A DNA stretch of 64,000 bases from an uncultured Acidobacteriota bacterium (GCA_964384905.1 CAYLND010000001.1:9915-73914); one strand, 5' to 3'. Counted from the stretch's first letter, positions 36,101 to 60,542 are shown. Notes: generated by a model not told the origin, from the sequence alone. Numbers and translations: made by a program.

Positions 36101-36213
36101 CGGTCCTCGCTGGGTACGCCCCGGAGTGTTTGACGAAACGAACCTTCTGCCCCGCCGAAGTGTCATACTTCTGACGGCCCGCCGGCGGGAGCCCCGGAGA
36201 CCCTCGTGAATAT

Positions 36214-37089
36214 ATGGACCGGTCTCGGCGGATTCAACCGCAGCGATCGACGACACCGATCGCCTCGCCGTGGCGGCAGGACAGCCGGCGCGCCCTCGCG
36301 TTTCTGAAGCATACGCGTCATGAGACACCCGAACGAGGGCGCGAGATCATGGTAAGAGGCGACCCGTCTTCCGATCGCCGGCGGCTTCTCGAGACGTATC
36401 GTGATCCCCTGTTCGTAAGGAGGCATGACCCCGACAGACGGGGCAACAGGTATCTCACCGACAGAAGGTGGCGCGTCATCCGCGCGGCCCTCGGCCGCCT
36501 GGCGGTGGGGAGGGGTGGTGGTCGGTATCTCGAAATCGGATGCGGGGACGGAACCGGGCTCGACCAGGTGGCGAGCGCCGGCCTCGGCTTCGCGGAAATC
36601 GTCGGCGTCGACATCCTGATGGAGCGCAGCGACCGGGCCTCCGCGCGCCGACCCGACGTCCACGTGATCTGCGCCGATGCGACCTGTCTTCCGTTCTCTT
36701 CAGGATCGTTCGACTATCTGGTCCAGTGCATGCTCCTGACCTCGGTCCTCTCGAGCCGGTCCCGGGTGCAGGTGGCTCGCGAGATCGTGCGGGTGATCCG
36801 CCCGGGCGGACACTTTCTCTCCCTCGACCTGCGGTATCCGGCTCTGCCGCGCCGGGGGCGAATCGGTCTGGGACTGGGCCGTCTGAGGCGCCTCTTCTCC
36901 GGAATGTCCCTGGTGACTTCGGACACGCACGTGATCCTGCCTCCGCTGGCCAGACTGCTCGCGGGCAGGGCGCCTATCTGCGATCGGCTGGCTGCCATCG
37001 CCGTGCTGCGGGCCTACAGGCTTGCGGTCTTCGTCCGGCCTGACGTCGATCACCCTCTCAGAGACGGCGAGGCGCGCAGCGGTTCTTGA
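36214..37089 (+). CDS. Class I SAM-dependent methyltransferase (start may be internal Met at 36349)
   Basis: LEIGCGDG motif I and downstream motifs II/III. Confidence 0.5.
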   Translation: MDRSRRIQPQRSTTPIASPWRQDSRRALAFLKHTRHETPERGREIMVRGDPSSDRRRLLETYRDPLFVRRHDPDRRGNRYLTDRRWRVIRAALGRLAVGRGGGRYLEIGCGDGTGLDQVASAGLGFAEIVGVDILMERSDRASARRPDVHVICADATCLPFSSGSFDYLVQCMLLTSVLSSRSRVQVAREIVRVIRPGGHFLSLDLRYPALPRRGRIGLGLGRLRRLFSGMSLVTSDTHVILPPLARLLAGRAPICDRLAAIAVLRAYRLAVFVRPDVDHPLRDGEARSGS

Positions 37090-38041
37090 GGTGCGCCAGG
37101 GCGTGCACGACGACAGCGGGCGCGAGCGAGACCGCCATCAGCCCGAGCCACTCCCATCCGCGCAGGAGGCCTCGATAGTGCCACAGGAGACGGCGCGTCG
37201 CGCGGCCGTGGCCGGAGACCAGGACGCCCCGCGCCGCTCGCAGCATGCTCCGGCGTCCGTAACGCCGCGCCGCGATGGCCATCGCCGGCCGCGCGGCCTG
37301 CCGGCAGGTGGCCTCCACCTTCGCGAGCGCGGCGGCCATGCTGGGGATCATCCTCGCGGCCTGATTCGTCATGTTGCCGGTGTGCCGCCGGAGACGGACG
37401 AGCGCCTGATCGATGTAGCCGATCGGCCGGCGCACGTAGAGGCGGCTGAAGTATTCGAAGTCTTCGGCACCCCAGAGCGCCTCGTCGAAGTATCCAGCCT
37501 CGTCCAGCACCTCGCGCCGGGCGCAGAGACCGGAGGGAGCGATGGAATAGCCGGGGAGAAGGATCTGACCGAGGGGATCGTCGAGGATGACCTCCTCGGC
37601 TCCGAAGATCCCCCGAGGGATGAAGGGAGGACCGGCGCCACGGCCGGTGAAGTAGCGCAGGTTGGCGAGGACGAACGCCAGGTCGGGTCGACGCTCGTGG
37701 AACCGCACGGCGCGCTCCACCAGCTGCGGCTCGAGAAGGTCGTCCGCGTCGAGCAACACGATCCATCGTCCACGCGCCGCTCGCAGTCCGCGATTGCGGG
37801 TCGCCGCCAGACCGCCGTGCACCACCCGCAGGAGTCGCACCGGAGCGCTGAACGTCTCGACCCGGGCCGTGGTGTCGTCCTCCGAGCCGTCATCGACGAC
37901 GAGGACTTCCAGGTCCCGGAACGTCTGGTCCAGGGCGCTTCGGATCGAATCGGAAATGAACTGGGCGGCGTTGTAGGCGGGAATGAGCACCGTGACAGCG
38001 GGAGCGGTCGCGGCGACGGAGCCCCAGGACGGAGGCGTCAC
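37058..38041 (-). CDS. Glycosyltransferase family 2 (GT-A, DxD)
   Basis: VTVLIPAYNAAQFI...VVDDGSEDDT...LLDADD; GTG start with GGAGAG RBS, GTGA overlap with Wzx stop. Confidence 0.75.
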   Translation of the reverse strand: MTPPSWGSVAATAPAVTVLIPAYNAAQFISDSIRSALDQTFRDLEVLVVDDGSEDDTTARVETFSAPVRLLRVVHGGLAATRNRGLRAARGRWIVLLDADDLLEPQLVERAVRFHERRPDLAFVLANLRYFTGRGAGPPFIPRGIFGAEEVILDDPLGQILLPGYSIAPSGLCARREVLDEAGYFDEALWGAEDFEYFSRLYVRRPIGYIDQALVRLRRHTGNMTNQAARMIPSMAAALAKVEATCRQAARPAMAIAARRYGRRSMLRAARGVLVSGHGRATRRLLWHYRGLLRGWEWLGLMAVSLAPAVVVHALAHLKNRCAPRRL

Positions 38042-39369
38042 GGGAACTCTCCGCCGGCCAGGCGGTCGCGCGAGCGACCACCGCTCGCCAACCCGCGCAG
38101 CGTGCCGATGACCAGCGCGCGGTCGGCCGCCCGAGGCACGAGCAGCTCCGATGCGGTGGTTCCCGTGAGACGGCGATAGAAGCGAATCGCAACGACGGTG
38201 CTGAGCGCGTAAGCGATGGTGCTCGCGATCGCGGCGCCGCTTGCCCCGTACGGCGGGATCAGCAGGACGTCGAGGACCACCGTGGCGGAGAGGGAGATCC
38301 AGGAGACCATGCTGACCACTCCGGGACGGTTCCGAGCGCCGAAGTCGGCGCTCAGTATCTTGGCCACGGACAGCGCGACGACGCCCGGGAGCAGGAGAAG
38401 GAGCGGGCGCAGTGACGGCCCGAACGGCGCGCCGTACAGCAGTGTCAGGAGGGGGCTGCCGCCGCCGGCCAAAACCAACGCTCCGAGAAGCGACAGTGGG
38501 AACGCCACCCGCGACACGACGCGCGTCGTCTCGCTCGTCCCCCCCCGGGAGCTCGCGAGACGGGGCATCATGACCACCGAAATGCAGGTCGACAGAATCC
38601 ATACGGTCTCGGCGAGGCTGACGGCGGCCGAATACAGGCCCAGCGAGGCAGCCCCGGCGAGCCCGTTGACGAACAGCATGTCCAGGCGATAGTTCAGAAG
38701 CTCCGCCAGCCAGCCAATATGGGCCCGCAGGCCGTAATGCAGAGCGAGACGCGGGTACGTCGGGTCGAAGGTCAATCGGCGGCCGATGGAAGGCCATCCG
38801 AGAACGAATCCTCCCAGGACGCTGCAGTACGAGGCTCCGACGAACAGCGCGCAGAACAGGCGGACGTCCCCGCCCGCGATCAACCCACCCGCGGCGAGCA
38901 GGACGAGGATCGAGCCGCGCTCGATCAGGTTCAGGATGTTGTAGAGACCGTAATTCTGAAGACCCAGCAACGTGTGGCGCAGCATCGAAAGAGCGAGAGC
39001 GGGCGGAATGCTCCAGGCCGCGAGGGCGACGTAGGACGAGGTGCGAGAATCCCAGGCGCCGGAGAAGTACAGGAGCTCGAACAGCAGCGTCGAGGCCAGG
39101 CCCAGGGGAAGGAGCATCGCGAGCGAGGTTCCGAGCGCTGTGGCGGCGTCCCGCTCGCGCCGCGCGACATAGAAGGCGTTCGCGGGTCCGACGCCCAGGG
39201 TGAGTACGTTGACCGCGAGCGTGGGCACGAGCAGCGCCATGACGTACACGCCCTTCCCTTCGGGACCCAGAAGACGCGCCGTCAGAATCCCGGTGAGAAG
39301 GAGAATCGCATTCCCAAGGACCGTGGTTCCGATGTTCCCCAGGATGGCACGGGCGAGGCTCACGTTCAC
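38038..39369 (-). CDS. wzx: Wzx-type oligosaccharide flippase (MOP/polysaccharide biosynthesis protein family)
   Basis: ~12 TM, 443 aa, characteristic N- and C-terminal PST-family helices. Confidence 0.75.
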   Translation of the reverse strand: MNVSLARAILGNIGTTVLGNAILLLTGILTARLLGPEGKGVYVMALLVPTLAVNVLTLGVGPANAFYVARRERDAATALGTSLAMLLPLGLASTLLFELLYFSGAWDSRTSSYVALAAWSIPPALALSMLRHTLLGLQNYGLYNILNLIERGSILVLLAAGGLIAGGDVRLFCALFVGASYCSVLGGFVLGWPSIGRRLTFDPTYPRLALHYGLRAHIGWLAELLNYRLDMLFVNGLAGAASLGLYSAAVSLAETVWILSTCISVVMMPRLASSRGGTSETTRVVSRVAFPLSLLGALVLAGGGSPLLTLLYGAPFGPSLRPLLLLLPGVVALSVAKILSADFGARNRPGVVSMVSWISLSATVVLDVLLIPPYGASGAAIASTIAYALSTVVAIRFYRRLTGTTASELLVPRAADRALVIGTLRGLASGGRSRDRLAGGEFP

Positions 39370-40538
39370 GAAAACGCGGAGTGACCCGTCAGGGCCTCGC
39401 CGAGAATGAGGGTGTGGATGTCGTGGGTTCCTTCGTAGGTGTAAACCGCCTCCAGGTTACAGAAGTGGCGGCCCACCTGATACTCATCCGTGATGCCGTT
39501 GGCCCCCAGGATGTCCCGGGCCAGGCGGGCGCACTCGCGCGCCATCCAGACGTTGTTTCTCTTGCCCATCGAGATCTGCGCCGGCGTGGCTTTGCCCTCG
39601 TCCTTCATCCTTCCAAGACGCAGCGCGAGGAGCTGTGCCTTGGTGATCTCGCTGGCCATCCAGACGAGCTTTTCCTGCTGCAGCTGGAAGGCCGCGATCG
39701 GTTTCTGGAACACGACGCGGGAGCCGGCGTAGGACAGGGCCTCGTCGAAGACCGCCAGGGCCGAGCCGATCCCGCCCCACGCGATCCCATAGCGGGCCTG
39801 ATTGAGACACATCAATGCACATTTCAGCCCCGAAGCCTTCGGCAGGAGACTCGCCGAGGAGACCGCGCAATCCTGAAGAGTGATCTCCGAGGTAACCGAG
39901 GCGCGCAGGGAGAACTTGCCAGCGTGATCGCGGGTGGTGAATCCGGGGGTCCCGCGCTCCACAAGGAATCCGCGGATGATCCCGTCCTCGCACCTGGCCC
40001 AGATCAGGGCGACGTCGGCGATCGAGCCCGAGGTGATCCAGGCCTTGGAGCCGTTCAGGACGTAATGATCGCCCCGGCGGCTCGCGCGCGTGCGCATGGA
40101 GCCGGGGTCGCTGCCGGCGTCGGCCTCCGTCAGACCGAAACAGCCGATGATCTCGCCACGCGCCATCGCCGGCAGCCAGCGCTCCTTCTGCGCGTCCGAG
40201 CCAAACGTCAGGATCGGGTACATGCAGAGGGCCCCCTGGACCGAGACGAAGGATCGGAGCCCGCTGTCACCGCGCTCCAGCTCCTGCATGACGAGACCGT
40301 ACGCGACATGGTTCAGCCCGGCGCACCCGAATCCGTGGAGATTGGCGCCCAGGAGTCCCAGACGCGCCATCTCGGCCACCAGATCGCTCGGAAAGCTGCC
40401 CTCCCGGAAATGACGCTCGATGATCGGCAGGACGCGGTCATCGACAAAACGTCGGACCATGTCGCGCGTCAGACGCTCCTCCTCGTTCAGCAGGGCGTCG
40501 ACGCTCAGGAAATCGAGAGCCTGGAAGGGTCGCGTCAT
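39366..40538 (-). CDS. Acyl-CoA dehydrogenase (glutaryl-CoA dehydrogenase-like)
   Basis: ACAD N/M/C domains, catalytic-base region YEGT.DIH; ATGA overlap with wzx start. Confidence 0.8.
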   Translation of the reverse strand: MTRPFQALDFLSVDALLNEEERLTRDMVRRFVDDRVLPIIERHFREGSFPSDLVAEMARLGLLGANLHGFGCAGLNHVAYGLVMQELERGDSGLRSFVSVQGALCMYPILTFGSDAQKERWLPAMARGEIIGCFGLTEADAGSDPGSMRTRASRRGDHYVLNGSKAWITSGSIADVALIWARCEDGIIRGFLVERGTPGFTTRDHAGKFSLRASVTSEITLQDCAVSSASLLPKASGLKCALMCLNQARYGIAWGGIGSALAVFDEALSYAGSRVVFQKPIAAFQLQQEKLVWMASEITKAQLLALRLGRMKDEGKATPAQISMGKRNNVWMARECARLARDILGANGITDEYQVGRHFCNLEAVYTYEGTHDIHTLILGEALTGHSAFS

Positions 40539-40539
40539 T

Positions 40540-41742
40540 TCAGGAAGTCGGCGCTTCGAGAAGGAGGGCGATCCCTTGCCCCCCGCTGATGCAGAGGGTG
40601 GACAGCCCCCGCCGCGCGCGCCGCCGCCGCATCTCGTGGAGGAGGGTCACGGTGATGCGGGCGCCGGTGGCGCCGAGCGGATGACCGAGGGCGATGGCGC
40701 CGCCGTTCACGTTGAGCCGCGCACGGTCGAATCCGAGCTCGCGGTCGCAGGCCAGGACCTGCGCCGCAAAGGCCTCGTTCAGCTCGATCAAGTCGATCTC
40801 GTCCAGCCGGAGACGCGTGCGCTCGAGGAGCCGGCGAATCGCGGGCACGGGTCCAAGGCCCATCACGGCAGGGTCGACTCCGGATGAGGTCGCCGCCACG
40901 ATACGGGCCTGGGGTTGGATCGCGAGTCGCCGCGCGGCCGCCCCGGAAAGGACGATCATGGCGGCGGCTCCGTCCACCAGCCCGCTCGACGATCCGGCGT
41001 GAACCGTTCCATCCTTCTTGAAGACGGGGGGAAGCTTCGCGAGCGATTCGGGTGTGACCCCATCGCGTGGGTGCTCGTCCTCGGCCACGAGAACGGGCCC
41101 CTTGGGTCCGGGGATCTCCACGGGAACGATTTCGTCCTGGAACGCCCCGGCTTTGCGCGCGCGCTCGCAGCGCTGCTGGGACTCGGCCGCGAAGGCGTCC
41201 TGCTCGGCGCGGCTGATGCGATAGCGCTCCGCCAGGGTCTCGGCGGTGTCTCCCATGACCTGGCCGCAGAGCGGGCAGAGAAAACCGTCGCGATACATCG
41301 CGTCCGTCAGACGCTGATGCCCGAGGCGGTAACCGAACCGCGCTCCCTCGAGAAGGTACGGGACGCGACTCATGGACTCGGCCCCGCCGACCAGGACGAC
41401 CTCCCGTTCACCCGCCAGGACGCTCTGATGGGCGGACAAGATCGCGCGCAGGCTGGACCCGCAGGCCATATTGATCGTGTAGGCGGGCGATGCGTCCGGG
41501 ACGCCGGCCCCGTGGGCGATCTGACGTGCCGGGTTGGGCCCGACTCCGGCGGGCCGCGCATGGCCCATGATGGTCTCTTCGACGTCCGAAGGCCGGACGT
41601 GCGCGCGCGTCATGGCGCCGCGCGCCGCGATCACACCCAGCTCGGGGGCGGTGAGCGCGCTGAGCGCCCCCCCGAACTTGCCCAGCGGGGTGCGCACGGC
41701 TCCCGCGATGAACACGTCCTGGAACTCTGCCATGGGCCCCAA
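40540..41742 (-). CDS. Acetyl-CoA C-acyltransferase (thiolase II)
   Basis: NMACGSSL active Cys, [16 protein letters not shown]-terminal CISGGQG. Confidence 0.85.
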
Positions 41743-41966: not shown

Positions 41967-43217
41967 ATGCGCATTCTCTACCTGACGCAGTACTTCCCGC
42001 CGGAGATGGGAGCGCCCCAGGCGCGCATCCCCGAGCTGATGGTGCAGATGGTCCGGCTCGGGCACCGGGTCACCATCCTCACGGCGATGCCGAATTATCC
42101 GCACGGACGGATCTTCCGGGGCTACCGCTGGCGGCCCGTCATGCGCGAGACGTTCCAGGGGATGCGCGTCGTGCGCACCTGGATCTATCCGACCATCGCC
42201 CTGGGCTTTCTCAGGCGCACCGCCAGCGCGCTGTCGTTCGCCGTGTCGAGCGCGGTCCTGGGGGCGGGGCTCGTGGGGGCCCAGGACGTGCTTCTGGTGG
42301 AATCGCCCCCGTTGTTCCTGGCGCTCACCGCGGTTCTTCTCAAGCGCCTGCTGCGGTGCCCGTACGTCGCGGTGGTCGCCGATCTGTGGCCGGAGGTGGC
42401 GATCGAGACCGGCATGCTCACCAACCCGCGCGCGATCCGCGTCGCCCGTTGGCTCGAGAGGCTCCTCTACGAGCGGTCTCTCGTCGTGGTGACCCAGACC
42501 CCGGGCCAGGTCGCGGACATCCGTTCGCGCTTTCCCGGCGTGAGGGTGGAGATGGTCAGTGGAGGCGTGGACAGCTCCAGGTTCTCCCCCGAACGGCGCA
42601 ACGAGGCCGTGCGCCGCGAGTTCGACGTGGCGGGGAGAGTCGGGGTCCTGTTTTCGGGGCTGCACGGGTTCGCGCAGGGATTGGATGCGGTCCTCGACGC
42701 GGCCGATCGACTTCGCGGGCGCGCGGACATCCGCTTCGTGCTGATCGGAAACGGGGCGGTCAAGCAGCACCTGGTCGGCCGGGCGGCGCAGCTGAAGCTT
42801 CCCAATCTGGACTTCCATGATCCGGTTCCGCGCGAGCGCATGCCCGCCATCGCGGCCTCGATGGATATCGCTCTCGCGCCGCTGCGTCGCGGAGTGCCCC
42901 GTGCGACGATCCCGACCAAGATTTACGAGGCGATGGCCTCGGGGCTGCCGATCGTCGTCGCCGGGGACGGCGAGGCGCACGATCTGGTGCGGGACCAGCG
43001 GATCGGCCTGGCGGTCCCCGCGGAAGCGGGACGCGAGATGGCCGCCGCCATCGCCCGCCTGGCGGACGAGGGCGTGCTGCGCTCCGAGTGTGCGTCGAAC
43101 GCTCTTCGGCTGGCGCGCGCCCGGTACGATCGGAGCGCCATCGCGCTCGTCCTCAATCGGCTCCTCAACGAGATCCGTCCGAGCTCACACCCACGCGATG
43201 CCGCCCCGCATCGGTAG
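41967..43217 (+). CDS. Glycosyltransferase family 4 (WcaI-like)
   Basis: MRILYLTQYFPPE N-terminus typical of WcaI-type GT4; GT-B C-domain with E..7..E region. Confidence 0.75.
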   Translation: MRILYLTQYFPPEMGAPQARIPELMVQMVRLGHRVTILTAMPNYPHGRIFRGYRWRPVMRETFQGMRVVRTWIYPTIALGFLRRTASALSFAVSSAVLGAGLVGAQDVLLVESPPLFLALTAVLLKRLLRCPYVAVVADLWPEVAIETGMLTNPRAIRVARWLERLLYERSLVVVTQTPGQVADIRSRFPGVRVEMVSGGVDSSRFSPERRNEAVRREFDVAGRVGVLFSGLHGFAQGLDAVLDAADRLRGRADIRFVLIGNGAVKQHLVGRAAQLKLPNLDFHDPVPRERMPAIAASMDIALAPLRRGVPRATIPTKIYEAMASGLPIVVAGDGEAHDLVRDQRIGLAVPAEAGREMAAAIARLADEGVLRSECASNALRLARARYDRSAIALVLNRLLNEIRPSSHPRDAAPHR

Positions 43218-47486: not shown

Positions 47487-47535
47487 TTGACGACGCCTCG
47501 ACCCGGGTGCCTTTCGCGCGCGAACGCTCCGCCAG

Positions 47536-50399: not shown

Positions 50400-50400
50400 C

Positions 50401-51260: not shown

Positions 51261-51475
51261 TGATGACCTGCTCTCCATTCCTCGCTGCCGAGCCACCAAT
51301 GTACCGCAGCGGACCGCCGTGATCTACAACGTTTTTAGTGCGCGGCATGGACGCTCGATGTCCCGCAGGGGTCCGAAGACCGCGCCCGGCCGGGGTCCTC
51401 GGGCCGGCGCTTCTCAGCGGCGGCGCTTCTATGCGATCATGAATTGTCCGTGTCGTTCGGCCGGGAGGTTCCCAT

Positions 51476-52597: not shown

Positions 52598-53721
52598 TCA
52601 GGAAGCCCGCCGCGCTGGCCATCGTCGCCGGCTACCCGCCGCCCTACGGCGGAGTCACGGTCGAGGTGCAGCGGCTGCGATCGCTGCTGGACAGGCGGGG
52701 CGTGGACTACGTGATTTACAACGCGGTATCGGCCAGCGAAGACGGCGACCGGGTCCGATCGGTCTTTCGCCGCAGGACGCTCTGGACGCTGCGCTATCTC
52801 CTGGGGGGACGTGAGCCGGCCGTCTATCTGATGTCGGGGAGGCTCATGGCCTGGCTTCTGGGGGCCTTCGCCGCGCGCTGGCGGGGCAAGCGCGTGCTCG
52901 TGCAGCTGCGCAACTCCTTCCTGGCGGATTGGATCGCTCGTTCGCCGTGGCGGCGTTTCTGGGCGGGTCTCGCCCTGCGCCATGTGACGGGCGTGGTCTG
53001 CGTCAGCAGGCTGCTGATGGACTGCGCGGTCACGGTGGGAGTCGATCCGCAGCGGCTCCTGTGGTCTCCGGCCTTCCTGCCTCCCGAGCTGGCGCCGGAG
53101 GACCGGCGGAATGTCGCTCCCGAAGTCTGGTCGTTCACCTCGGCCCACCGGCCCCTCATCGCGGCCAACGGCAAGGTGCTCTGGTACGAGGGGCAGGATC
53201 TCTATGGTCTTGATCAACTGGTGGAGCTGGCAGCCCGCCTGAAGCCGGACCTTCCCGAGGTCGGCATCGTCGTGTGCTTCTGGGACCACGTTCCCGAGGA
53301 TGAGGCTTACCTGGCACGCCTCACGCGCCGCGCCGAGACGCTCGGGGTATCGGGGCACGTGCTTTTCAACACGAAGAAAGGGGCCTTCGTGCCGGTGCTC
53401 GAAGTGTCGGACGTCTTCGTCCGCCCCACCAATACCGATGGCGACGCGGTCTCGATCCGCGAGGCCCTCTATCTGGGCGTTCCGACCGTTGCCAGCGACG
53501 CCGTGGAGAGGCCGCCAGGGACGACGCTCTTTCGCACCCGGGATCTCGATGATTTGGAGGCCAAGGTGCGCAGCCTGCTCCGTGGCGGCCCGCGTCCTGA
53601 GCCACGCGTGCGGGGCCGGCTGAGCGAGCCGGATCGGACGCGTATCGAGGCCTACGTGTCCCTGCTCTCGTCCGTCGCCGCGGGTGGGGGTGCAAGGACG
53701 CGAGCGGCGCGCGCCGACTGA
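52594..53721 (+). CDS. Glycosyltransferase family 4-like (GTG start, GTGA overlap)
   Basis: GT-B fold C-domain (EALYLGVPTVASD); N-domain divergent. Confidence 0.65.
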   Translation: MIRKPAALAIVAGYPPPYGGVTVEVQRLRSLLDRRGVDYVIYNAVSASEDGDRVRSVFRRRTLWTLRYLLGGREPAVYLMSGRLMAWLLGAFAARWRGKRVLVQLRNSFLADWIARSPWRRFWAGLALRHVTGVVCVSRLLMDCAVTVGVDPQRLLWSPAFLPPELAPEDRRNVAPEVWSFTSAHRPLIAANGKVLWYEGQDLYGLDQLVELAARLKPDLPEVGIVVCFWDHVPEDEAYLARLTRRAETLGVSGHVLFNTKKGAFVPVLEVSDVFVRPTNTDGDAVSIREALYLGVPTVASDAVERPPGTTLFRTRDLDDLEAKVRSLLRGGPRPEPRVRGRLSEPDRTRIEAYVSLLSSVAAGGGARTRAARAD

Positions 53722-53740
53722 CCCGCCTGCGGGGGCCGAC

Positions 53741-55894
53741 TTGAAACAGGTCCTACAGAATCTCAGGACAGGAGAGATCGAGGTCGCCGAGGTTCCGTGT
53801 CCTGCCCTGCTCCCGGGCCATCTGCTGGTCCAGACGCGGGCGTCCCTCATCTCGTCCGGCAGCGAGCGAACGCTCCTGACGTTCGGGCAGTCCTCCTGGC
53901 TGAACAGGGCGCGCAGTCAGCCTGACAAGGTGCGGCGTGTCGTGGAGAAGATCCGCGTGGACGGCCTCGTGCCGACCCTCGAAGCCGTTTTCGCGCGGCT
54001 GGACGAGCCGCTCCCGCTCGGGTACTGCAATGCGGGCGTCGTCGTGGAGACGGGCGCAGGCGTGGAGCGATTCCGCCCGGGCGACCGGGTCGCGAGCAAC
54101 GGACCCCATGCGGAGATGGTCTCGGTGCCGACCAACCTCTGCGCGCGCGTTCCCGACACAGTCCCGGACGAGCGCGCGGCCTTTGCGGTCCTGGGGTCCA
54201 TCGCGCTGCACGGAACGCGTCTGCTCGAGCCGACGCTGGGCGAGTCGGTGGTCGTGTTCGGGCTGGGTCTCGTCGGGCTCCTCGCGGTCCAGGTGCTCCG
54301 AGCGCACGGCTGCAGAGTCCTGGGGATCGATCCGAACCCCGCGCGGCGCGATCGGGCGACCGTCCTCGGAGCGGACTCGACGCAGGATCTGGCGCCAGGC
54401 GGCGACCCCATGGCCGCGGCCTCGGCGTTCTCGTCACGACGTGGCGTGGACGGAGTCCTGATCGCGGCTTCCGCTCCCGGTAACGAGATCATCCGTCAGG
54501 CCGCCAGGATGTGTCGCAAGCGCGGTCGGATCGTTCTCATCGGTGTGGTGGGGCTCGATCTCGACCGGACCGATTTCTACGAGAGGGAGCTCTCCTTCCG
54601 CGTGTCCTGCTCCTACGGCCCGGGTCGCTATGATCCGGAGTACGAATCCGGCGGCCGGGACTACCCGCTGGCCTACGTGCGCTGGACCGAGCAGCGCAAC
54701 CTGGAGGCGGTGCTCTCCCTGATGGCGGACGGCCGCCTCGACGTCGGTCCCTTGATCACCACCCGGGTGCCGCATGGGGAGGCGTCGCGAGCCTATCAGT
54801 CCCTGACCACGGACGCTGACGCCCTCGGCATCGTCCTCGAGTATCCCAGGAAGCCCGCGCCGTTGCAGCGAGTCGTCCAGTCGTCGGCGAGCGTCCCCCG
54901 CCAGGAGGCCTCCGGCGTTTCGGTCGGCGTGATCGGCGCCGGCGATTTCGCGAGCTCGATCCTGCTGCCGGCCCTGCGTCGGTCGGGAGTCCATCTGGAA
55001 TCGATCGCGGCGCGTCACGGTGTCTCCGCGGCGCGCGCGGGGCGCACCTTCGGATTCCGTCAGGTCAGCAGCGATCATCGCGTCGTTCTCGAGAATCCCG
55101 TCGTGAACACGGTCTTCATCGTGACGCGTCACGACAGCCATGCCCGACTCGCGATCGAGGCGCTCGAGGCCGGGAAGAACGTGTTCGTGGAGAAGCCCCT
55201 GGCGCTCGACCGCGACGAGCTGCAGGCCGTGGCGCGCGTGCATGCGTCAGCGGGCCGGCAGCTGGTGGTTGGATTCAATCGCCGCTTCTCGCCGCACGCG
55301 CGGGCCCTGAAGCGGCTCCTGATGGCGCGGCGGACGCCGGCCACCCTCATCATGACCGTGAACGCCGGCTCTCTTCCTCCCGGTCACTGGCTGCAGGATC
55401 CGCGACAGGGGGGCGGCCGCCTCGTCGGCGAGGCCGTGCATTGGATCGATCTGCTGCTGTTCCTCGTGGATCATCCGATCGTCTCGGTCGCGTGCGCGCG
55501 CCTGGGAGCGGGCCCACCAGATCCCCCGGGGGATTCCGTGACCCTGACCCTCGCCTTCGCGGACGGATCGATCGGCACGATCCACTACCTCACGGAGGGG
55601 AGCCGGCGCTTCCCGAAGGAGCGGCTCGAGATCGTGTTCGAAGGGCGCATCCTGCAGCTCGATAATTTCCGCACGCTGACGGGCTTCGGGGTCCCCGGGT
55701 TCTCCCGGCTGCGCACGTGGCGCCAGGACAAGGGGCATCGCGCCGAGCTGGCCGCGTTCATCGACTCGGTCCGACGGGGAGGCGAGCCGACGATTCCCTT
55801 CGCCGACCTCGAGCACGTCACGCTCGCCAGCTTTGCCGCCCTCGAATCGGCCCGCATGGGGAGCGTGGTCCGGCTGGCACCGGTCCATTCCTAG
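53741..55894 (+). CDS. Bi-domain oxidoreductase: N-terminal zinc-type MDR alcohol dehydrogenase fused to C-terminal Gfo/Idh/MocA NAD(P)-oxidoreductase
   Basis: GLGLVGLLAVQ Rossmann motif of the MDR domain and a second Rossmann (VGVIGAGDFASS) plus GFNRRF of the GFO family; alternative ATG at 53684. Confidence 0.65.
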   Translation: MKQVLQNLRTGEIEVAEVPCPALLPGHLLVQTRASLISSGSERTLLTFGQSSWLNRARSQPDKVRRVVEKIRVDGLVPTLEAVFARLDEPLPLGYCNAGVVVETGAGVERFRPGDRVASNGPHAEMVSVPTNLCARVPDTVPDERAAFAVLGSIALHGTRLLEPTLGESVVVFGLGLVGLLAVQVLRAHGCRVLGIDPNPARRDRATVLGADSTQDLAPGGDPMAAASAFSSRRGVDGVLIAASAPGNEIIRQAARMCRKRGRIVLIGVVGLDLDRTDFYERELSFRVSCSYGPGRYDPEYESGGRDYPLAYVRWTEQRNLEAVLSLMADGRLDVGPLITTRVPHGEASRAYQSLTTDADALGIVLEYPRKPAPLQRVVQSSASVPRQEASGVSVGVIGAGDFASSILLPALRRSGVHLESIAARHGVSAARAGRTFGFRQVSSDHRVVLENPVVNTVFIVTRHDSHARLAIEALEAGKNVFVEKPLALDRDELQAVARVHASAGRQLVVGFNRRFSPHARALKRLLMARRTPATLIMTVNAGSLPPGHWLQDPRQGGGRLVGEAVHWIDLLLFLVDHPIVSVACARLGAGPPDPPGDSVTLTLAFADGSIGTIHYLTEGSRRFPKERLEIVFEGRILQLDNFRTLTGFGVPGFSRLRTWRQDKGHRAELAAFIDSVRRGGEPTIPFADLEHVTLASFAALESARMGSVVRLAPVHS

Positions 55895-55898
55895 CGAC

Positions 55899-57380
55899 AT
55901 GGCCCATCCTCTCCCGCCGTTCGTTCAGGTTCCGTGCCGCTCGGGCTCACGTGACCTCAGGATCGTCGTGCTCACGTCGACGGCGGTCCGGATCGCCTTC
56001 ATCCTGTGGGGCTTGTCGGGGGATTACATCAAGCCCTTTCACGGCATGTCGGACGTTGACTTCACGGGCGGGTATGCGATCGCGGCGGGATACGGCTATG
56101 TGACCGGTGCTCCCTGGGTGTCGGCCCGGCTCACCGACATGTACCAGCGGGTGACCGAGGGAACGCTGATGGCCGCGCCCGGGACGGTGGAGCCGATCGA
56201 CCGGGGCGATCTCGTTCCCAGGACCATCCACCCGCCGGGATTGGCACTCCTCGTGGCCGGCCTGCATCGTCTGCTCGGGACGAGCGCCTCTCTCCCCGTG
56301 GAGATCCTGGGAGCGGTCCTGGACACCGTCTCGGCGGCACTGGTGTGGCGGATCAGCGCGTCGTGGCTCGGCGCGCGCGTGGCGTTTGCCGCGGGTCTAT
56401 GCCATGCCCTGTTCCCTCCGTTCGGCTACTGGTCGACAGTCGCGAAGTCGTCGGACGGGCTGCTGGGCTTCTTCATCATCGCGAGCCTCGCCTGCGGCCT
56501 GCGGGCGACCCAGGCGGTCGGGCCGGCGGCCGCGGGATGGGTCGTGGCCGCCGGAGCCCTTCTCGGGGTCGGCTGCTACCTGCGGCCGGACTACCTCATG
56601 CTCCCGCCGGTCGTGGGAGCGGCGGCCGGACTGGCCACCCGCCGATGGCGGAGAGCGGCGATTGGTGTCGTGCTGGCCCAGGGGGTGGCCATTCTGTGCC
56701 TCGTTCCATGGGCCTATCGCAATGAGAGGGAGACGGGCTGGTGGATCTTCACGAGCAGCAGCGTGGGGGGCACGCTGGTGAGCGGGCTGGGGGAGTTCAG
56801 CAACTCCTGGGGCATCGGAAGCACGGACGACGATCGTGAGAGGGAGGCTCACGCGCTCGGATTCTCCGACCCGTTCCAGCCGGAAGCGGATGCCTATTTC
56901 CGCCATGTCTTCGCGCAGAAAATCAGGGAGCGGCCCGGGGCCTTTCTCCTCGCCATCGTCCGGCGCCTGCCCCTCTCCCTGGCGACGCCTTACACGTGGG
57001 GATTGATCAATCCCTGGAAGACGGAGACCTTCACCGAGGCGCGTCAGACCGGTCTCGATCAGTACGACGTGGTCCTGAAGCGTCCGCGATACGTGCTGGC
57101 GGCGTACTGGGACCGTCTGGCCATGGCGCTCGTGACCTTGGCGTGCACGATGGGAACGGCCGCCATGCTCGTCCTCGAACGACACCGCGCCGCCGATCTC
57201 CTCCTGCTCATCAGTCCTCACGTCTACTCGATGGCCGTGCATCTGCTGACCCACATGGAGCCGCGCTACCTGCTCCCGAGCATGTCCCTCTGGCTGATCG
57301 GGCTGGCCTACGTCATCGCGCAGGGATGGGAGTCGAAGCGAGTCGATGCGGGGCGCGTGAGTCGGGGCCTCGGCGCGTGA
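55899..57380 (+). CDS. GT-C superfamily membrane glycosyltransferase (ArnT/PMT/GT39-83-like, ~11-12 TM)
   Basis: Multi-TM protein with periplasmic-loop acidic motif region and size typical of undecaprenyl-/dolichyl-phosphate-sugar-dependent transferases. Confidence 0.5.
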   Translation: MAHPLPPFVQVPCRSGSRDLRIVVLTSTAVRIAFILWGLSGDYIKPFHGMSDVDFTGGYAIAAGYGYVTGAPWVSARLTDMYQRVTEGTLMAAPGTVEPIDRGDLVPRTIHPPGLALLVAGLHRLLGTSASLPVEILGAVLDTVSAALVWRISASWLGARVAFAAGLCHALFPPFGYWSTVAKSSDGLLGFFIIASLACGLRATQAVGPAAAGWVVAAGALLGVGCYLRPDYLMLPPVVGAAAGLATRRWRRAAIGVVLAQGVAILCLVPWAYRNERETGWWIFTSSSVGGTLVSGLGEFSNSWGIGSTDDDREREAHALGFSDPFQPEADAYFRHVFAQKIRERPGAFLLAIVRRLPLSLATPYTWGLINPWKTETFTEARQTGLDQYDVVLKRPRYVLAAYWDRLAMALVTLACTMGTAAMLVLERHRAADLLLLISPHVYSMAVHLLTHMEPRYLLPSMSLWLIGLAYVIAQGWESKRVDAGRVSRGLGA

Positions 57381-57422
57381 ACGTTTGACTGGCGCGCGTG
57401 GGTCTGCTACCGTGCGGCGCTC

Positions 57423-60400
57423 ATGACCGCGGGGTCCTTCAACCGCCCGTTCTTCCTCGTGCTGCTTCTTCTCGTCGGCACCGCCGATCCCAGGGCGGCC
57501 GCGGACAATCGTCCCAAGTCGCCGATCCTCGGTCTCGGTCACGAGTACGATCTCGGAGGCGACCGTGAAGAGTTCCTGCTTCCGGATCCCCTCGTCGATC
57601 CCTCGATCGCGCCGGACCATCCTTTGTACGTGAGAATCCGCGCCCCCTGGTCCCTGCTCGAGCCACAGCCGGGAACGTACGATTGGAGCGAGGTCGACCG
57701 GATCGTCGCGCCTTATCGCGACGCGCGCTACGTCGTCACGCTCTGCGTGTACGGCGTGAATCGTTCGGTGGACGCCCTGGGTCTCCCGCCGTCGGCCGCT
57801 CATCCACAGATCATGAAAGCCTGGCTCGAGCTCTTGCGCGCGACCGCGACCCATTTCAAGGGACAGGTTCGCACCTACGAGATCTGGGACGCTCCCAATC
57901 GCGAGAGCGGTTGGGCCTCGGGAGGCGCGGCGGACTTCGCCTACGTCCTCAAGTCGTCCTCCGTGACCATCCGCTCGGCGGATCCCGGCGCGCTGATCGC
58001 TCAGGGTGCGCTTGCGGTCGCGGCGGACACCATCGACAGCGATCTCGGGTGGCAGGAGGCGCTGTACGCGCGGGACGTGGCGACCTACGTGGATGTTCTG
58101 CCCCTCCTCCCCGCGTCGGGGGCGCCCTTCGCCACGATCCTGTCACGCGCCGACGAGATCCTCCTCCAGAGCGATCCGTCCGCCCAGCTTTGGGCGGTCG
58201 GGGTGGCGCTCGAAGGAGACACCGATCGCGATCGGGCGTCCGACCTCCTCGCGAAGTTCATCGTGGGCCAGGGCGAGGGCGCCGCCGTCGTCAGCTTCGA
58301 TCTGGAGGCCGACGTCGAAGGTCGGCCGGAGTTTCCCGGCGTGCTTCTCGACATCCACAAGCTGTTTCTCCCCACTTACGGTCGCGTGACCGGCGCACCG
58401 GTCGAGCTCGAGACTTCGACGGGAGAGGGACCCAAGCCACTCCAGGGCGTTACGGTCTACCGATTCTTCGACGCGGCATCCTTCCAGGGATTGATCGGCT
58501 TCTTCGCCCACTCGGTCGTGACCGAGCCGGAGGTCCGTCTCCTGATTCCGACCGCGGCGGTCCGCGGCGTCGTCACCTACGACATCATCGGGGGAGCCGC
58601 CGGTCCCCCGGGAGGGGTCGAGACCGACCAGAAGAGCAACACCACGCGGGTGCCGGTGGCGGTGCTGCGACGGCCTCTCGTGGTGCAGTACGCCCGCGTC
58701 CCGATCAAGGGATTCGAAGCGGAAAAGCAGGAGGTCCGCGTCCACGGAACCTCGCTCATCACCGCGGAGGAGATCATCGCCGCGCACCAGGCTTTCATGG
58801 CGGACCAAAAATTCCGGCTGAAGAATTATCGCGCCGATGCCCTGCTCACCTACCATGCGAAAATCGCCGGGAGCAACACGATCGACATCAGCTTCGACAA
58901 CGCCTTCTTCTGGGACACCGGCACGGGCGCCGAATGGCAGCAACGCGCGTTCTACTACAACGGGGTGCTCTGGAGAGGGAAGAAGCTTCCGGAGCTGCCG
59001 ATCCCGCAGCCCGAAAAGGTGTTCACCCTTCCGCTCGATATCAATCTCAACAAGGATTACACGTACCAATACGTAGGCCAGGACAAGGTCGGGGAATTCG
59101 ACTGCTACGTCCTGGACTTCAAGCCTGTCGATCGCATGAAGATCCTGTACGAAGGCCGGGCGTGGATTGAATCGAGGACCTTCGCTCCGATCAAGACGTC
59201 CACCGTGGAGACTCACCTGTCGGCGCCGGTGACCTCCAACCAGGAACAGGACGTCTACGCGCCGCAGACGGGGCCCGACGGCTCGACGTTTTGGATCCTG
59301 TCGAGGGTCGAAGGGCAGCAGATTCTCTCGGTGGCGGGGGAAAACCTTGTCCTCTTGCGCGAGATCGACTTCAAGAATCTACTGATCAACGATGCCAATT
59401 TCGCTCGGGGCCGGGACGAGGCGTATCGCTCGGATCGTCCGATGCTGCGCGACACCGACCAGGGGCTTAAATACCTGGAGCGCACGCCGGGCGGTGATCG
59501 GATCGTCAGGGACAGGACGCGCAAGTCCGCACTCCTCGGCCTGGCGGGCCTCTACCGGCAGCCCGGGATCGAATACCCGGTCCTCCCGCTCGCGGGCGTG
59601 GGGTATTTCAACTTCGATGTGGGCGGACGCAACGTGCAGACCAACGCGCTCATCGGCGGTGTCATCAACCTGTTCTCGATGACCGACCCGCACGTGTTCG
59701 GCAAAAAGCTCGATGCGACGGTGCAAGTGGTGGGCCTGGCGGTGAACATCACGGACCAGCTGTACGTGGAAGGCCGGAAGATTCCGGAGAGCAACGTGGA
59801 TGTCCGGACCCAGAGCCTGTCGGGGGGGCTCGGGACGCCGCTGGGGAACTTCATGCGGGTCAAGCTGACCTACAACTTGAAGTACGCCAACTACAGCCGC
59901 GATCGCGACACCGAAGGGTTCATCGTTCCTTCCGACACGTTGATCCAGTCACCCGGACTCGAGTGGGAATTCAATCGTGCCGCCTGGACCGTGACGGCGG
60001 CGGGCGAGAAGAGCTTTCGCAACCACTGGAAGCCCTGGGGCGACTCGGACGCGGTCTGCCCCTCGCTGGGGTCGTGTCTGGCGGACTTCGACCCCGACCA
60101 GAAGGATTACCTGACCTACGAGTTCACGGCGGCGAAACAGGTGTTCCTGCCCCTGTTCCAGAAGCTCCGATTCGAGGCCATCTGGCAGACCGGCTCCCAT
60201 CTGGATCGCTTCAGCGAACATCAGTTTACCTTTTTCGGGAACAGACTCCGGGGGTTCTCGGGCTCCGGCGTGCGCTACGATCGCGGTGCGATCGCTCGGG
60301 CGGAGTACTCGTTCAACATCGCGGACGTCATTCGATTCGAGGCGGATGTGGATCGGGCTTACGTCAAGGACACGCTGACCTCACAGGATTTCCATTCGTT

Positions 60401-60542
60401 CACGGGGTTCGGGATCTCGGGCAACACCGCCGGACCCTGGGAGACCGTCCTGCAGTTCGATATCGGAGTCGCCGTGCAATCGGACATCAGCCGGCTGACC
60501 GGCGACACCGAGTTCCAGATCGGGATCCTCAAGTACTTTTGA
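57423..60542 (+). CDS. Large exported fusion protein: signal peptide, GH-like TIM-barrel domain with degenerate acid/base motif, LolA-like middle domain, C-terminal outer-membrane beta-barrel ending ...GILKYF
   Basis: N-terminal signal peptide; LEPQPGTYDW...YEIWDAPNRE glycoside-hydrolase-like region; YVLDFKPVD...LYEGRAWIESRTF LolA-like motif; amphipathic beta-strands and terminal Phe. Confidence 0.5.
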   Translation: MTAGSFNRPFFLVLLLLVGTADPRAAADNRPKSPILGLGHEYDLGGDREEFLLPDPLVDPSIAPDHPLYVRIRAPWSLLEPQPGTYDWSEVDRIVAPYRDARYVVTLCVYGVNRSVDALGLPPSAAHPQIMKAWLELLRATATHFKGQVRTYEIWDAPNRESGWASGGAADFAYVLKSSSVTIRSADPGALIAQGALAVAADTIDSDLGWQEALYARDVATYVDVLPLLPASGAPFATILSRADEILLQSDPSAQLWAVGVALEGDTDRDRASDLLAKFIVGQGEGAAVVSFDLEADVEGRPEFPGVLLDIHKLFLPTYGRVTGAPVELETSTGEGPKPLQGVTVYRFFDAASFQGLIGFFAHSVVTEPEVRLLIPTAAVRGVVTYDIIGGAAGPPGGVETDQKSNTTRVPVAVLRRPLVVQYARVPIKGFEAEKQEVRVHGTSLITAEEIIAAHQAFMADQKFRLKNYRADALLTYHAKIAGSNTIDISFDNAFFWDTGTGAEWQQRAFYYNGVLWRGKKLPELPIPQPEKVFTLPLDINLNKDYTYQYVGQDKVGEFDCYVLDFKPVDRMKILYEGRAWIESRTFAPIKTSTVETHLSAPVTSNQEQDVYAPQTGPDGSTFWILSRVEGQQILSVAGENLVLLREIDFKNLLINDANFARGRDEAYRSDRPMLRDTDQGLKYLERTPGGDRIVRDRTRKSALLGLAGLYRQPGIEYPVLPLAGVGYFNFDVGGRNVQTNALIGGVINLFSMTDPHVFGKKLDATVQVVGLAVNITDQLYVEGRKIPESNVDVRTQSLSGGLGTPLGNFMRVKLTYNLKYANYSRDRDTEGFIVPSDTLIQSPGLEWEFNRAAWTVTAAGEKSFRNHWKPWGDSDAVCPSLGSCLADFDPDQKDYLTYEFTAAKQVFLPLFQKLRFEAIWQTGSHLDRFSEHQFTFFGNRLRGFSGSGVRYDRGAIARAEYSFNIADVIRFEADVDRAYVKDTLTSQDFHSFTGFGISGNTAGPWETVLQFDIGVAVQSDISRLTGDTEFQIGILKYF

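Follow-up and report, generated by a model that had tools for sequence, protein, structure and literature searches.

The closest described counterparts of the locus analysed here are the Wzx/Wzy-dependent O-antigen and EPS/CPS clusters, in which a Wzx flippase and several GT2 and GT4 glycosyltransferases are encoded together with sugar-modifying enzymes in one fixed hot spot flanked by conserved genes, the contents differing among relatives. The priming transferase (PGT) need not sit inside such a cluster; this arrangement is textbook, Escherichia coli O-antigen clusters using wecA elsewhere in the genome. A PCP (Wzc/Wzz) and OPX (Wza) pair is needed for CPS/EPS and not for O-antigen. Three further groups of proteins are relevant: (i) PslG, the endoglycosidase of family GH39 encoded in the Psl locus of Pseudomonas aeruginosa (PDB 5bx9, 4zn2), (ii) the Omp85/TpsB barrels BamA, TamA, FhaC and CdiB, known members of which transport or insert proteins, and (iii) the PgaA/PgaB, PelB/PelA and AlgE/AlgL pairs of synthase-dependent systems, each a porin with a periplasmic modifying enzyme, in which an outer-membrane barrel is joined to a module that binds or trims glycan in the periplasm.

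We analysed a 64-kb stretch of DNA (hereafter the window) from an uncultured, Polarisedimenticolia-like acidobacterium. Genes were called from codon statistics, giving about 50 across the window, and were annotated by Pfam and NCBIfam; related loci are denoted by L numbers. The region from 36214 to 60542 varies between strains and encodes the synthesis of a decorated surface sugar polymer. Combining the gene families with synteny, conservation of the gene block and the PGT and Wzy_C genes present in relatives, we suggest that it is probably an ordinary Wzx-dependent, undecaprenyl-linked heteropolysaccharide locus of the O-antigen or EPS type that occupies a variable hot spot within a conserved envelope backbone. 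The locus resembles Wzx/Wzy clusters in its combination of Wzx, several GT2/GT4 enzymes and sugar-modifying enzymes, and in its position between conserved genes. It differs from them in that the window contains no Wzy, Wzz or WaaL, in that genes of lipid metabolism and the envelope, namely acyl-CoA dehydrogenase (ACAD)/thiolase, PlsC and MlaEFD, interrupt the island and alternate with its genes, and in the presence of an ArnT-like GT-C. Base composition has no sharp break at the locus borders, and searches turned up neither tRNA genes nor meaningful repeats at the flanks.

The backbone runs in the order carB, DUF4388, ACAD, thiolase, a variable slot, OM1039 (a 1039-aa outer-membrane protein), PlsC, MlaEFD, UGDH/epimerases and again variable genes. 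The DUF4388/PatA_N protein (34958-36328, − strand; PF14332, 108 bits; NF053729, 52 bits against a cut-off of 38) carries an MshE-like c-di-GMP-binding motif and is 68-88% identical in L005, L018, L020 and L026; this backbone neighbour is possibly a regulator. ACAD (39366-40538, −; Pfam) is 77-81% identical and accompanied by the thiolase, an acetyl-CoA C-acyltransferase (40540-41742, −; TIGR01930, 452 bits against a cut-off of 241), in L005, L009, L017, L018, L019, L020 and L026, irrespective of the glycan genes. An earlier note on this DNA had listed the two genes in the glycan set and had suggested an acylated or methylated product. Because the pair stays in the same position in L005, L009, L017 and L018, all of which are without the window's glycan genes, it is not a glycan-acylation module; it belongs to a conserved backbone operon (68-80% identity), and from this conservation we take the two genes to be housekeeping neighbours outside the pathway.

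ACAD, thiolase, OM1039 (45-82% identity), PlsC and MlaE/D are syntenic in L005, L009, L017, L018, L020 and L026. In the window the PlsC-type acyltransferase gene (60529-61245, −; PF01553, 130 bits), likewise syntenic in relatives, is followed by mlaE, mlaF and mlaD (61391-64000, +), the window ending at base 64000 inside mlaD. The variable slot holds a GINT1_N-like gene in L005, GT4 genes in L017, a Kelch protein gene in L026, polysaccharide deacetylase pairs, GT2 and GNAT in L009, and a GT4 gene with a 226-aa ORF in L020; glycan genes (deacetylase pairs, asparagine synthase, GT4) also flank OM1039 in L006, L013, L015 and L019. UGDH and epimerase genes lie directly after mlaEFD in six related loci and are followed by GT2-ManC-Wzy_C in L006 and L021 and by a whole glycan block in L026+L024.

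Profile-HMM annotation located every element of the earlier note's inventory at its coordinates. For SAM methyltransferase 1 (36214-37089, +; class I, Methyltransf_11/25), L026 has a 36% identical counterpart at the equivalent place, likewise flanked by DUF4388 and ACAD. The GT2 glycosyltransferase (37058-37990, −; about 310 aa; PF00535, 101 bits) has one C-terminal hydrophobic segment by hydropathy, and its orthologues in L020 and L026 (57-59% identity) also adjoin Wzx. The Wzx-type MOP flippase (38038-39369, −; PF01943 (Polysacc_synt), 41.2 bits against a cut-off of 28.2; also PF13440 and MurJ) is 57% identical in L020 and has about 10 hydrophobic segments; apart from it and the GT-C, hydropathy marks no protein of the locus as a polytopic membrane protein.

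Beyond ACAD and thiolase lie a WcaI-like GT4 gene, GT4a (41967-43217, +; NF007640, 171 bits, below its cut-off), a heparinase II/III-like (PL12-like) gene (43198-45399, +; PF07940, 120 bits, and PF16889, 77 bits, both above cut-offs) and a GNAT acetyltransferase gene (45396-46088, +; PF00583, 37.5 bits). GT4a is 74% identical in L022, and its counterparts in the cassettes that L001 and L003 carry in other phyla are 34-36% identical; GNAT is 55% identical in L022. The heparinase-like protein, 65% identical in L022 and 44% in L003, has heparinase III as its nearest solved relatives (4fnv, E 4e-18), scores 64-72 bits against the NCBIfam HepC equivalogs, far under their cut-offs of 600-700, and shows no evident signal peptide or hydrophobic N-terminal segment by hydropathy; it is probably cytoplasmic and may modify or epimerise a uronic acid.

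On the opposite strand follow a protein with an N-terminal metallo-beta-lactamase (MBL) fold (46013-47539, −; PF12706, 28.6 bits against a cut-off of 27), whose 330-aa C-terminal region matched no family, a CapK/PaaK-like adenylate-forming ligase (47536-48921, −), a DUF362 protein (48921-50399, −; PF04015, 90 bits) and SAM methyltransferase 2 (50401-51507, −; start uncertain, 51237 or 51507). The ligase matches the NCBIfam FlxY, PaaK and F390-synthetase-related models below threshold, reaching no NCBIfam equivalog cut-off, and has 2879 homologues, about 58% identical across phyla. Like Staphylococcus aureus CapK (COG1541) it is encoded in a polysaccharide locus and has a CapK_C domain (PF27533), annotated on the identical database protein P0058; unlike CapK it always occurs with DUF362 and is usually accompanied by a bi-domain oxidoreductase and a heparinase-like protein as well. 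DUF362, for which no solved relative was found by sequence, is in turn always paired with the ligase, and adjoins it in L001 and L003 (57-58% identity); it is 74% identical in L022. The remaining glycan genes form a run on the + strand: GT4b (51476-52597; PF00534, 127 bits), the divergent GT4c (52594-53721; PF00534, 33 bits against a cut-off of 26.4), a bi-domain oxidoreductase of Zn-ADH/MDR and Gfo/Idh/MocA parts (53684-55894; Pfam/NCBIfam), presumably a sugar or nucleotide-sugar dehydrogenase, which is 53% identical in L011 and 42% in L001, and a GT-C fold glycosyltransferase (55968-57380; PMT_2, ArnT-like; PF13231, 44.8 bits against a cut-off of 26.1). Its start is placed at 55968, in agreement with the 470 aa of the database protein P0178, which is identical to it; the GT-C has several hydrophobic segments by hydropathy, no solved relative by sequence and a 45% identical counterpart in L025, there between PlsC and MlaE. 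The proposal that the glycan is decorated is borne out by the two SAM methyltransferases, the GNAT and the CapK-like ligase.

Ten of the 14 glycan genes lie together, at 49-69% identity, in one relative, L026+L024, two loci that abut on a single JGI contig; there the genes are found across MlaEFD from their place in the window: the MBL-fold protein (69%), GT2 (59%) and a Wzx tail (49% over the C-terminal 86 aa) in L026, the CapK-like ligase (62%), and DUF362 (66%), GT4b (65%), GT4c (62%), the oxidoreductase (59%) and GT-C (51%) in L024; a heparinase-like paralogue is also present. ACAD/thiolase and OM1039, by contrast, are backbone with differing glycan genes between them. In L022, GT4a and the heparinase-like, GNAT, CapK and DUF362 genes adjoin OM1039 (55-74% identity). 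The DUF362, CapK-like, oxidoreductase, GT4 and heparinase-like genes recur together in other phyla: this core cassette lies beside Wzx and aminosugar genes in L001 (Pirellulales) and, in L003 of another lineage, beside Wzy (a weak Pfam hit) and a GT4-Bac_transf fusion (PGT). For the function of the DUF362/CapK/oxidoreductase/heparinase-like cassette we found no experimental precedent in the literature searched.

The earlier note had seen no Wzy, Wza/Wzc or priming transferase and had proposed an assembly and export route outside the textbook schemes. The absence holds across the whole 64-kb window by family search and tblastn, and within the locus hydropathy agrees: none of the about 50 genes matched Wzy, Wzy_C, Wza/Poly_export, Wzz/Wzc, GNVR, Bac_transf or Glycos_transf_4 (PF02397, PF00953), and six-frame tblastn of the window with PGT, Wzy and Wzy_C proteins from related loci gave no match. 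Of the components of a Wzx/Wzy pathway the window thus encodes the MOP-family flippase and neither PGT, Wzy/Wzy_C nor PCP/OPX. The proposed route, however, rests on absence in a window that ends inside mlaD, and PGT and Wzy_C each occur in some of the relatives. In L026+L024 the orthologous block is followed by GT4, an epimerase and, as block end, a WecA-family priming transferase (Glycos_transf_4, PF00953) with the sequence NLYNFMDGSDG, an NxxNxxDGxDG-type motif. In L006 and L021 a Wzy_C gene lies about 9-10 kb downstream of OM1039, in a region that corresponds to sequence past the window end; in L008 the distance is about 0.6 kb. Since the sequence in hand stops at base 64000, PGT and Wzy_C in this genome are extrapolated from these relatives. 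No clear Wzy polymerase, as opposed to a Wzy_C ligase-type protein, was seen in the sampled loci of the lineage, and the Pfam lists of the sampled relatives (L005, L006, L020, L021, L024, L025 and L026; about 20 kb each) contain no Wza/OPX or Wzc/PCP. The export step could be of the WaaL/Lpt type, which has no need of OPX, or another.

Two other assembly schemes were rejected. An ABC-transporter-dependent pathway has no ABC genes (Wzm/Wzt) in 36214-60542, the two ABC_membrane/ABC_tran half-transporters at 6684-10273 lying 26 kb off among housekeeping genes. A synthase-dependent pathway is at odds with a sole GT2 of about 310 aa with one hydrophobic segment and with an OM1039 that has no TPR domain; the window differs from synthase-dependent systems in having no TPR domain, OPX partner or synthase-type GT2.

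In the Wzx-dependent model that we favor, whose substrates, step order and final acceptor are inferred, the repeat unit would be begun on undecaprenyl phosphate by a WecA-type priming transferase whose gene lies outside the window, and GT2 and the three GT4 enzymes would lengthen it. A uronic-acid-type sugar would be made or derivatised by the bi-domain oxidoreductase, by the CapK-like ligase paired with DUF362, and by the heparinase-III-like protein, which is probably a uronate-modifying or epimerase-type enzyme of the cytoplasm; GNAT and the two methyltransferases would decorate this sugar. Wzx would flip the completed unit to the periplasmic side, where the ArnT-like GT-C is predicted to add a sugar from a polyprenyl-phosphate donor, and ligation or polymerisation would fall to a Wzy_C-family protein encoded past the window end.

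Because relatives carry the core genes missing from the window, either together with the same gene set or a few kb beyond, what is unusual comes down to the uncharacterised outer-membrane protein at the edge of the cluster. OM1039 (57423-60542, +), a conserved backbone gene product, has by model and fold searches a signal peptide, a GH39/PslG-like (beta/alpha)8 TIM barrel with beta-sandwich (about residues 31-425), a LolA-like domain (about 448-655; PF17131, 24-27 bits, below the cut-off of 30) and a C-terminal 16-stranded Omp85/TpsB-like barrel (about 700-1039). It shares with PslG a periplasmic GH fold encoded in a polysaccharide biosynthesis region; PslG, however, is a stand-alone enzyme with Glu at the acid/base position. 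In a profile alignment its WNEPN aligns with WDxPN of the OM1039 family, the window protein reading WDAPN with Ala157 for the Glu, and the family has E, A, G, R, D or N at this position. Like Omp85/TpsB barrels, OM1039 has an RGF motif (NRLRGFSGSG), in the loop joining predicted strands 11 and 12, the position that the L6 VRGF motif occupies in BamA. It differs from them in having no POTRA domain by Pfam, the LolA-like and GH39-like regions preceding the barrel instead; residues 661-1039 match no Pfam family at E <= 1, including PF01103 (Omp85) and PF03865 (ShlB), and a distant family member, P0285, reaches 18.6 bits for PF01103, below the cut-off of 24. With the PgaA/PgaB-type pairs OM1039 shares the coupling of barrel and periplasmic module, and deacetylase pairs adjoin its gene in relatives; unlike PgaA-, BcsC- and AlgE-type barrels it is Omp85-like by fold search. 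The composite OPX/beta-barrel translocons of Myxococcus follow the same logic of barrel and periplasmic module (PMC9601211, PMC9603273).

This architecture raises the alternative, close to the non-textbook export of the earlier note, that OM1039 takes the place of Wza/OPX as an exporter dedicated to the locus product: the lipid anchor would be bound by the LolA-like domain and the glycan by the catalytically degenerate PslG-like domain, with glycolipid or polymer passed on or inserted by the barrel. The gene lies 42 nt downstream of the GT4b-GT4c-oxidoreductase-GT-C run and is co-oriented with it, variable glycan genes flank it in more than 12 related loci, wherever enough flank was recovered, and no OPX or PCP occurs near it in the sampled relatives; in addition, a distant family member carries an N-terminal PAP2 lipid-phosphatase domain, hinting at lipid-linked substrates. 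However, its constant partners PlsC and MlaEFD are lipid-homeostasis genes, while the neighbouring glycan genes vary, and in L026+L024 about 7 kb of Mla and UGDH genes separate it from the orthologous glycan block. Moreover, the PslG acid/base Glu is Ala here and variable in the family, Omp85 proteins are known for handling proteins and not glycans, and the literature searched holds no supporting experiment. We therefore consider such an exporter rather unlikely.

Alternatively, GT2, Wzx and GT-C could form a Gtr/Arn-like three-component system, a part that would need no PGT or Wzy: GT2 would make a polyprenyl-phosphate monosaccharide, the flippase would move it, and GT-C would transfer it to lipid A/core, protein or an existing polymer. 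The GT-C scores above the PMT_2/ArnT-like Pfam cut-off, its homologues are named ArnT-like in sources, GT2 with its C-terminal hydrophobic segment has the size of GtrB or ArnC, and the lone GT-C orthologue of L025 lies beside lipid genes. Yet the best NCBIfam matches of GT2 are enzymes of Und-PP-linked oligosaccharides (TuaG, EpsD, HfsG, PglI), with weak matches to polyprenyl-P synthases (PpgS, 27 bits; AglJ, 20 bits), and L020 has the GT2-Wzx pair with no GT-C within 10 kb. Given that Gtr-type systems use GtrA and not a Wzx of 10-12 TM segments, and that an oligosaccharide repeat unit is indicated by the three GT4 enzymes and by the PGT of the orthologous block, we regard this system as quite unlikely. 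That the heparinase-like gene, with its PL12-type Pfam domains and heparinase III as nearest solved relative, marks a cluster for polysaccharide degradation or utilisation and not biosynthesis is highly improbable, since the protein has no evident signal peptide, its gene shares an operon with those for GT4 and GNAT and overlaps them, loci of other phyla show it likewise paired with GT4, Wzx, Wzy and PGT genes, and the locus contains no transporters, sulfatases or sugar catabolic genes.

The Wzx-dependent heteropolysaccharide locus thus remains our preferred reading, and the real lead in the region is OM1039, in which a PslG-like GH39 fold lacking the catalytic Glu is joined to a LolA-like domain and a barrel in an uncharacterised family. 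This family might be a new outer-membrane machine that exports or inserts lipid-anchored glycans in Acidobacteriota and allied phyla, a proposal that we hold to be unlikely. If it were true, the OM1039 family would stand in for Wza/OPX, or for LptDE, in handling what the flanking variable glycan genes produce.

Because the window has a G+C content of approximately 69%, gene calling relied on codon statistics instead of raw ORFs, and annotation on Pfam and NCBIfam. Between 36214 and 60542 there are 17 genes, which by gene overlaps form four transcription units plus a SAM methyltransferase gene on its own (36214-37089, +). Beyond the latter lie genes for a GT2 (37058-37990, -), Wzx (38038-39369, -), an acyl-CoA dehydrogenase (ACAD; 39366-40538, -), a thiolase (40540-41742, -), a WcaI-like GT4 (GT4a; 41967-43217, +), a heparinase II/III-like protein (43198-45399, +), a GNAT (45396-46088, +), an MBL-fold protein (46013-47539, -), a CapK/PaaK-like ligase (47536-48921, -), a DUF362 protein (48921-50399, -), a second methyltransferase (50401-51507, -), two further GT4s (GT4b, 51476-52597, +; GT4c, 52594-53721, +), a bi-domain MDR and Gfo/Idh/MocA oxidoreductase (53684-55894, +), a PMT_2-type GT-C (55968-57380, +) and OM1039, a secreted protein of 1039 aa (57423-60542, +). 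A sequence search for solved relatives returned none for GT-C and none for the DUF362 protein.

These calls bear out the inventory of the earlier note. Its statement that Wzy, Wza/Wzc and a priming transferase (PGT) are lacking holds across the entire 64-kb window: Wzy, Wzy_C, Poly_export, Wzz/GNVR, Bac_transf and Glycos_transf_4 have no Pfam or NCBIfam match among approximately 50 window genes, and the PGT, Wzy and Wzy_C proteins of related loci, used as tblastn queries, have no six-frame match in the window. By hydropathy, no protein of the locus other than Wzx and GT-C is a polytopic membrane protein, ruling out a hidden Wzy there. A PEP-CTERM/exosortase-type EPS locus is unlikely as well, as GT4b scores just 171 bits against TIGR03088 (cut-off 409) and exosortase and PEP-CTERM markers are absent from the window.

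The locus is flanked on the left by the housekeeping genes queA, tgt, carA and carB followed by a gene for a DUF4388/PatA_N protein, and on the right by a PlsC acyltransferase gene followed by mlaE, mlaF and mlaD, with the window ending inside mlaD. The window contains no tRNA genes, short repeats between 35.5 and 61.5 kb occur at chance level only, and no sharp break in GC or GC3 was found; thus, the island is not obviously a recent mobile insertion.

Several features of the flanks merit mention in their own right. The DUF4388/PatA_N protein (34958-36328, -) contains a c-di-GMP-binding motif of the MshE type (NF053729, 52 bits; cut-off 38), and its gene is divergent from that of methyltransferase 1, a position kept in relatives; the protein may be a c-di-GMP-responsive regulator of neighboring envelope or glycan genes. 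The mlaF ORF (62155-63489, +) is 86% identical over its first 251 aa to MlaF of the related locus L020, lacks the usual stop near 62910 and extends for approximately 190 codons, out of frame, over the mlaD start (62900), which could reflect a true stop-codon loss or an assembly error. Directly upstream of queA/tgt, a short run of co-oriented genes with no assigned role (20199-23650, +) encodes an NTP_transf_5 nucleotidyltransferase, a xylose-isomerase-like TIM-barrel protein, a short radical-SAM protein (225 aa) and a 218-aa ORF. Finally, two overlapping tandem ABC half-transporter genes (ABC_membrane and ABC_tran; 6684-10273, -) in housekeeping surroundings suggest a heterodimeric exporter, which is not Wzm/Wzt-like.

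OM1039 homologues form 57 clusters (46-82% identity) from metagenome-assembled genomes, most of them labelled Candidatus Polarisedimenticolia or Acidobacteriota. We compared the window by tblastn with 26 loci taken around homologues of OM1039, the CapK-like ligase and GT-C, and found a backbone with the order carB, DUF4388, ACAD, thiolase, a variable slot, OM1039, PlsC, a second variable slot, MlaEFD and UGDH/epimerases. ACAD and thiolase occupy the same position with 68-80% identity in L005, L009, L017, L018, L019, L020 and L026, and the genes between thiolase and OM1039 vary: this slot holds a GINT1_N-like protein in L005, polysaccharide deacetylases, a GT2 and a GNAT in L009, GT4s in L017, a Kelch-repeat protein in L026, and one GT4 and a 226-aa ORF in L020, the closest relative (OM1039 82% identical), and in L006, L013, L015 and L019 deacetylase pairs, asparagine synthase and GT4s adjoin OM1039. 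The persistence of ACAD and thiolase while the glycan genes differ identifies the pair as a housekeeping neighbor, and synteny rules it out as a glycan-acylation module. Judged by gene order, the 24-kb "locus" consists of a variable glycan island in which backbone genes are interspersed.

Among the relatives, a polysaccharide deacetylase gene pair, one member with a DUF3473 domain, precedes the OM1039 homologue in L019 (2563-4274) and L006 (2541-4305); L009 has one confirmed deacetylase beside an ORF of similar size (6792-7778), and in L008, L013 and L015 the homologue follows ORF pairs of matching sizes. The neighborhood of these pairs frequently includes asparagine-synthase-like genes and CapK-like paralogues, a gene set resembling that of PEP-CTERM-type EPS loci. 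In L015 a bifunctional ATP-sulfurylase/APS-kinase gene for PAPS synthesis (6555-8294, +) lies between PlsC and MlaE, a hint that glycans of that lineage may be sulfated.

Much of the glycan gene set recurs in L026 and L024, which are contiguous on one JGI contig with 557 nt between them. Here, the block follows MlaEFD, UGDH, an epimerase and a second UGDH, and its products are 69% (MBL), 59% (GT2), 49% (Wzx, C-terminal 86 aa), 62% (CapK), 66% (DUF362), 65% (GT4b), 62% (GT4c), 59% (oxidoreductase) and 51% (GT-C) identical to those of the window. The block also holds a heparinase-like paralogue and extends into genes for a GT4, an epimerase and a Glycos_transf_4 protein of 326 aa with the WecA/WbpL-type motif NLYNFMDGSDG. 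In L022, GT4a, heparinase-like, GNAT, CapK and DUF362 genes (55-74% identity) directly adjoin the OM1039 gene, as does the bi-domain oxidoreductase gene in L011. As far as gene content in relatives tells, the glycan genes form a genuine unit, elsewhere accompanied by a PGT.

A Wzy_C gene is found downstream of OM1039 in three relatives. L021 and L006 have MlaEFD, UGDH/epimerases, GT2, ManC and Wzy_C in this order, with Wzy_C starting approximately 9-10 kb past OM1039, and the corresponding stretch would fall beyond base 64000, outside the window; in L008, Wzy_C lies approximately 0.6 kb past OM1039 with a single 531-aa ORF between them. Extrapolating from these relatives, the apparent lack of core machinery would reflect the window edge and dispersed genes. 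With a PGT accompanying the orthologous block (L026/L024) and Wzy_C downstream in L006, L021 and L008, the non-textbook route proposed in the earlier note finds no support. Its check for conservation as a block in relatives comes out mixed: a ten-gene core is retained, there with a canonical PGT, and the 24-kb set as delimited is not. Of the decorated glycan, the decoration stands and the acylation by ACAD and thiolase falls.

Combining these data, we consider it reasonably likely that the region is a strain-variable, Wzx-dependent locus for an undecaprenyl-linked heteropolysaccharide of O-antigen or EPS type, situated at a lineage-specific hot spot. In this model, the PGT and a Wzy_C-type partner would be encoded outside the window, the methyltransferases, the GNAT and the CapK/DUF362 pair would decorate the glycan, and the ArnT-like GT-C would perform a periplasmic step. 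No OPX/PCP pair was seen in any of the related loci sampled; a WaaL/Lpt-type end-point requires neither, making such an end-point plausible for the product.

The AlphaFold model of OM1039 (built on 31 homologues; mean pLDDT 81.8) comprises a signal peptide, a (beta/alpha)8 barrel with a beta-sandwich (~31-425), a LolA-like domain (~448-655) and a 16-strand barrel (~700-1039) ending in ...KYF, and fold and profile searches are concordant. The best match of the family profile among PDB sequences is PslG (E 1.5e-7), with the family 'WDxPN' opposite the catalytic 'WNEPN' of PslG. The PslG acid/base Glu position is Ala157 in OM1039 and differs among family members (E, A, G or others), and the expected nucleophile position is likewise unconserved, making it probable that the GH39-like domain either binds glycan or is a degenerate enzyme. 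In the barrel, the loop equivalent to L6 contains an RGF motif. OM1039 lacks a POTRA domain and does not match Omp85 in Pfam; distant members have weak DUF5686 and Omp85 matches. An exhaustive profile search yielded 426 representatives at E <= 1e-30, many of which have just the LolA-like domain and the barrel in common, with different N-termini; in the distant member P0340 (1157 aa), an N-terminal PAP2 lipid-phosphatase domain is fused to these two. The unrelated N-termini indicate that the family is built around a conserved core formed by the LolA-like domain and the Omp85-like barrel. In literature on DUF5686 and on Omp85/LolA-like fusions we found nothing relevant, and the family is undescribed there.

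In the loci sampled from this lineage, the OM1039 gene always lies among glycan and lipid-transport genes. OM1039 may alternatively be a novel exporter of the locus product, for which its domain architecture and the constant presence of glycan genes around it speak. However, the partners constantly found with it are PlsC and Mla, the glycan block of L026/L024 lies approximately 7 kb from OM1039, and such an exporter would be without precedent; we regard this as unlikely. That GT2, Wzx and GT-C form a Gtr/Arn-like subsystem seems quite improbable to us. In L025 an ArnT-like GT-C orthologue (4206-5621, +; 45% identical) stands by itself between PlsC and mlaE, the other genes of the glycan block being absent there, so GT-C may work independently of that block, e.g. 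on lipid A or core. A degradative rather than biosynthetic cluster is hardly credible.

Returning to the heteropolysaccharide locus, five of its genes recur as a portable cassette (DUF362, CapK-like ligase, bi-domain oxidoreductase, GT4 and heparinase-III-like) from Planctomycetota to Acidobacteriota, with approximately 58% identity of the ligase and DUF362 pair across phyla. The ligase has at least 2879 homologues (~55-60% identity) in Anaerolineales, Terriglobales, Pirellulales and others. A Pirellulales MAG (L001) encodes GT4, DUF362, CapK, bi-domain oxidoreductase, GT4 and heparinase-like proteins together with Wzx and aminosugar genes, and a soil contig (L003) has a similar run without the oxidoreductase, with Wzy (weak Pfam match) and a GT4-Bac_transf priming transferase, and thus within an apparently complete Wzx/Wzy locus. 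CapK-type enzymes are carboxylate-activating, the oxidoreductase is similar in its Gfo/Idh/MocA half to dehydrogenases of sugars and nucleotide sugars (NCBIfam), the PL12-like (heparinase-like) protein has no evident signal peptide and its gene overlaps biosynthetic genes, and two UGDH paralogues are encoded nearby in relatives. Together, these traits suggest that the cassette builds or derivatizes a uronic-acid residue, probably a modified one, perhaps amidated or epimerized. A paper on an archaeal C5-epimerase makes no mention of heparinase (PMC12624080) and so lends no support to an epimerase role of heparinase-like proteins. Our search of the literature on a heparinase II/CapK/DUF362 cassette returned nothing relevant and no published function.

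As such, the locus carries little weight: it adds another variable Wzx-type island for a surface glycan, from a lineage of uncultured acidobacteria. Worth keeping from it are a cassette without a described function and a sizeable uncharacterized outer-membrane family. If the OM1039 family handles lipid-linked glycans, it would widen the known range of Omp85-type barrels.
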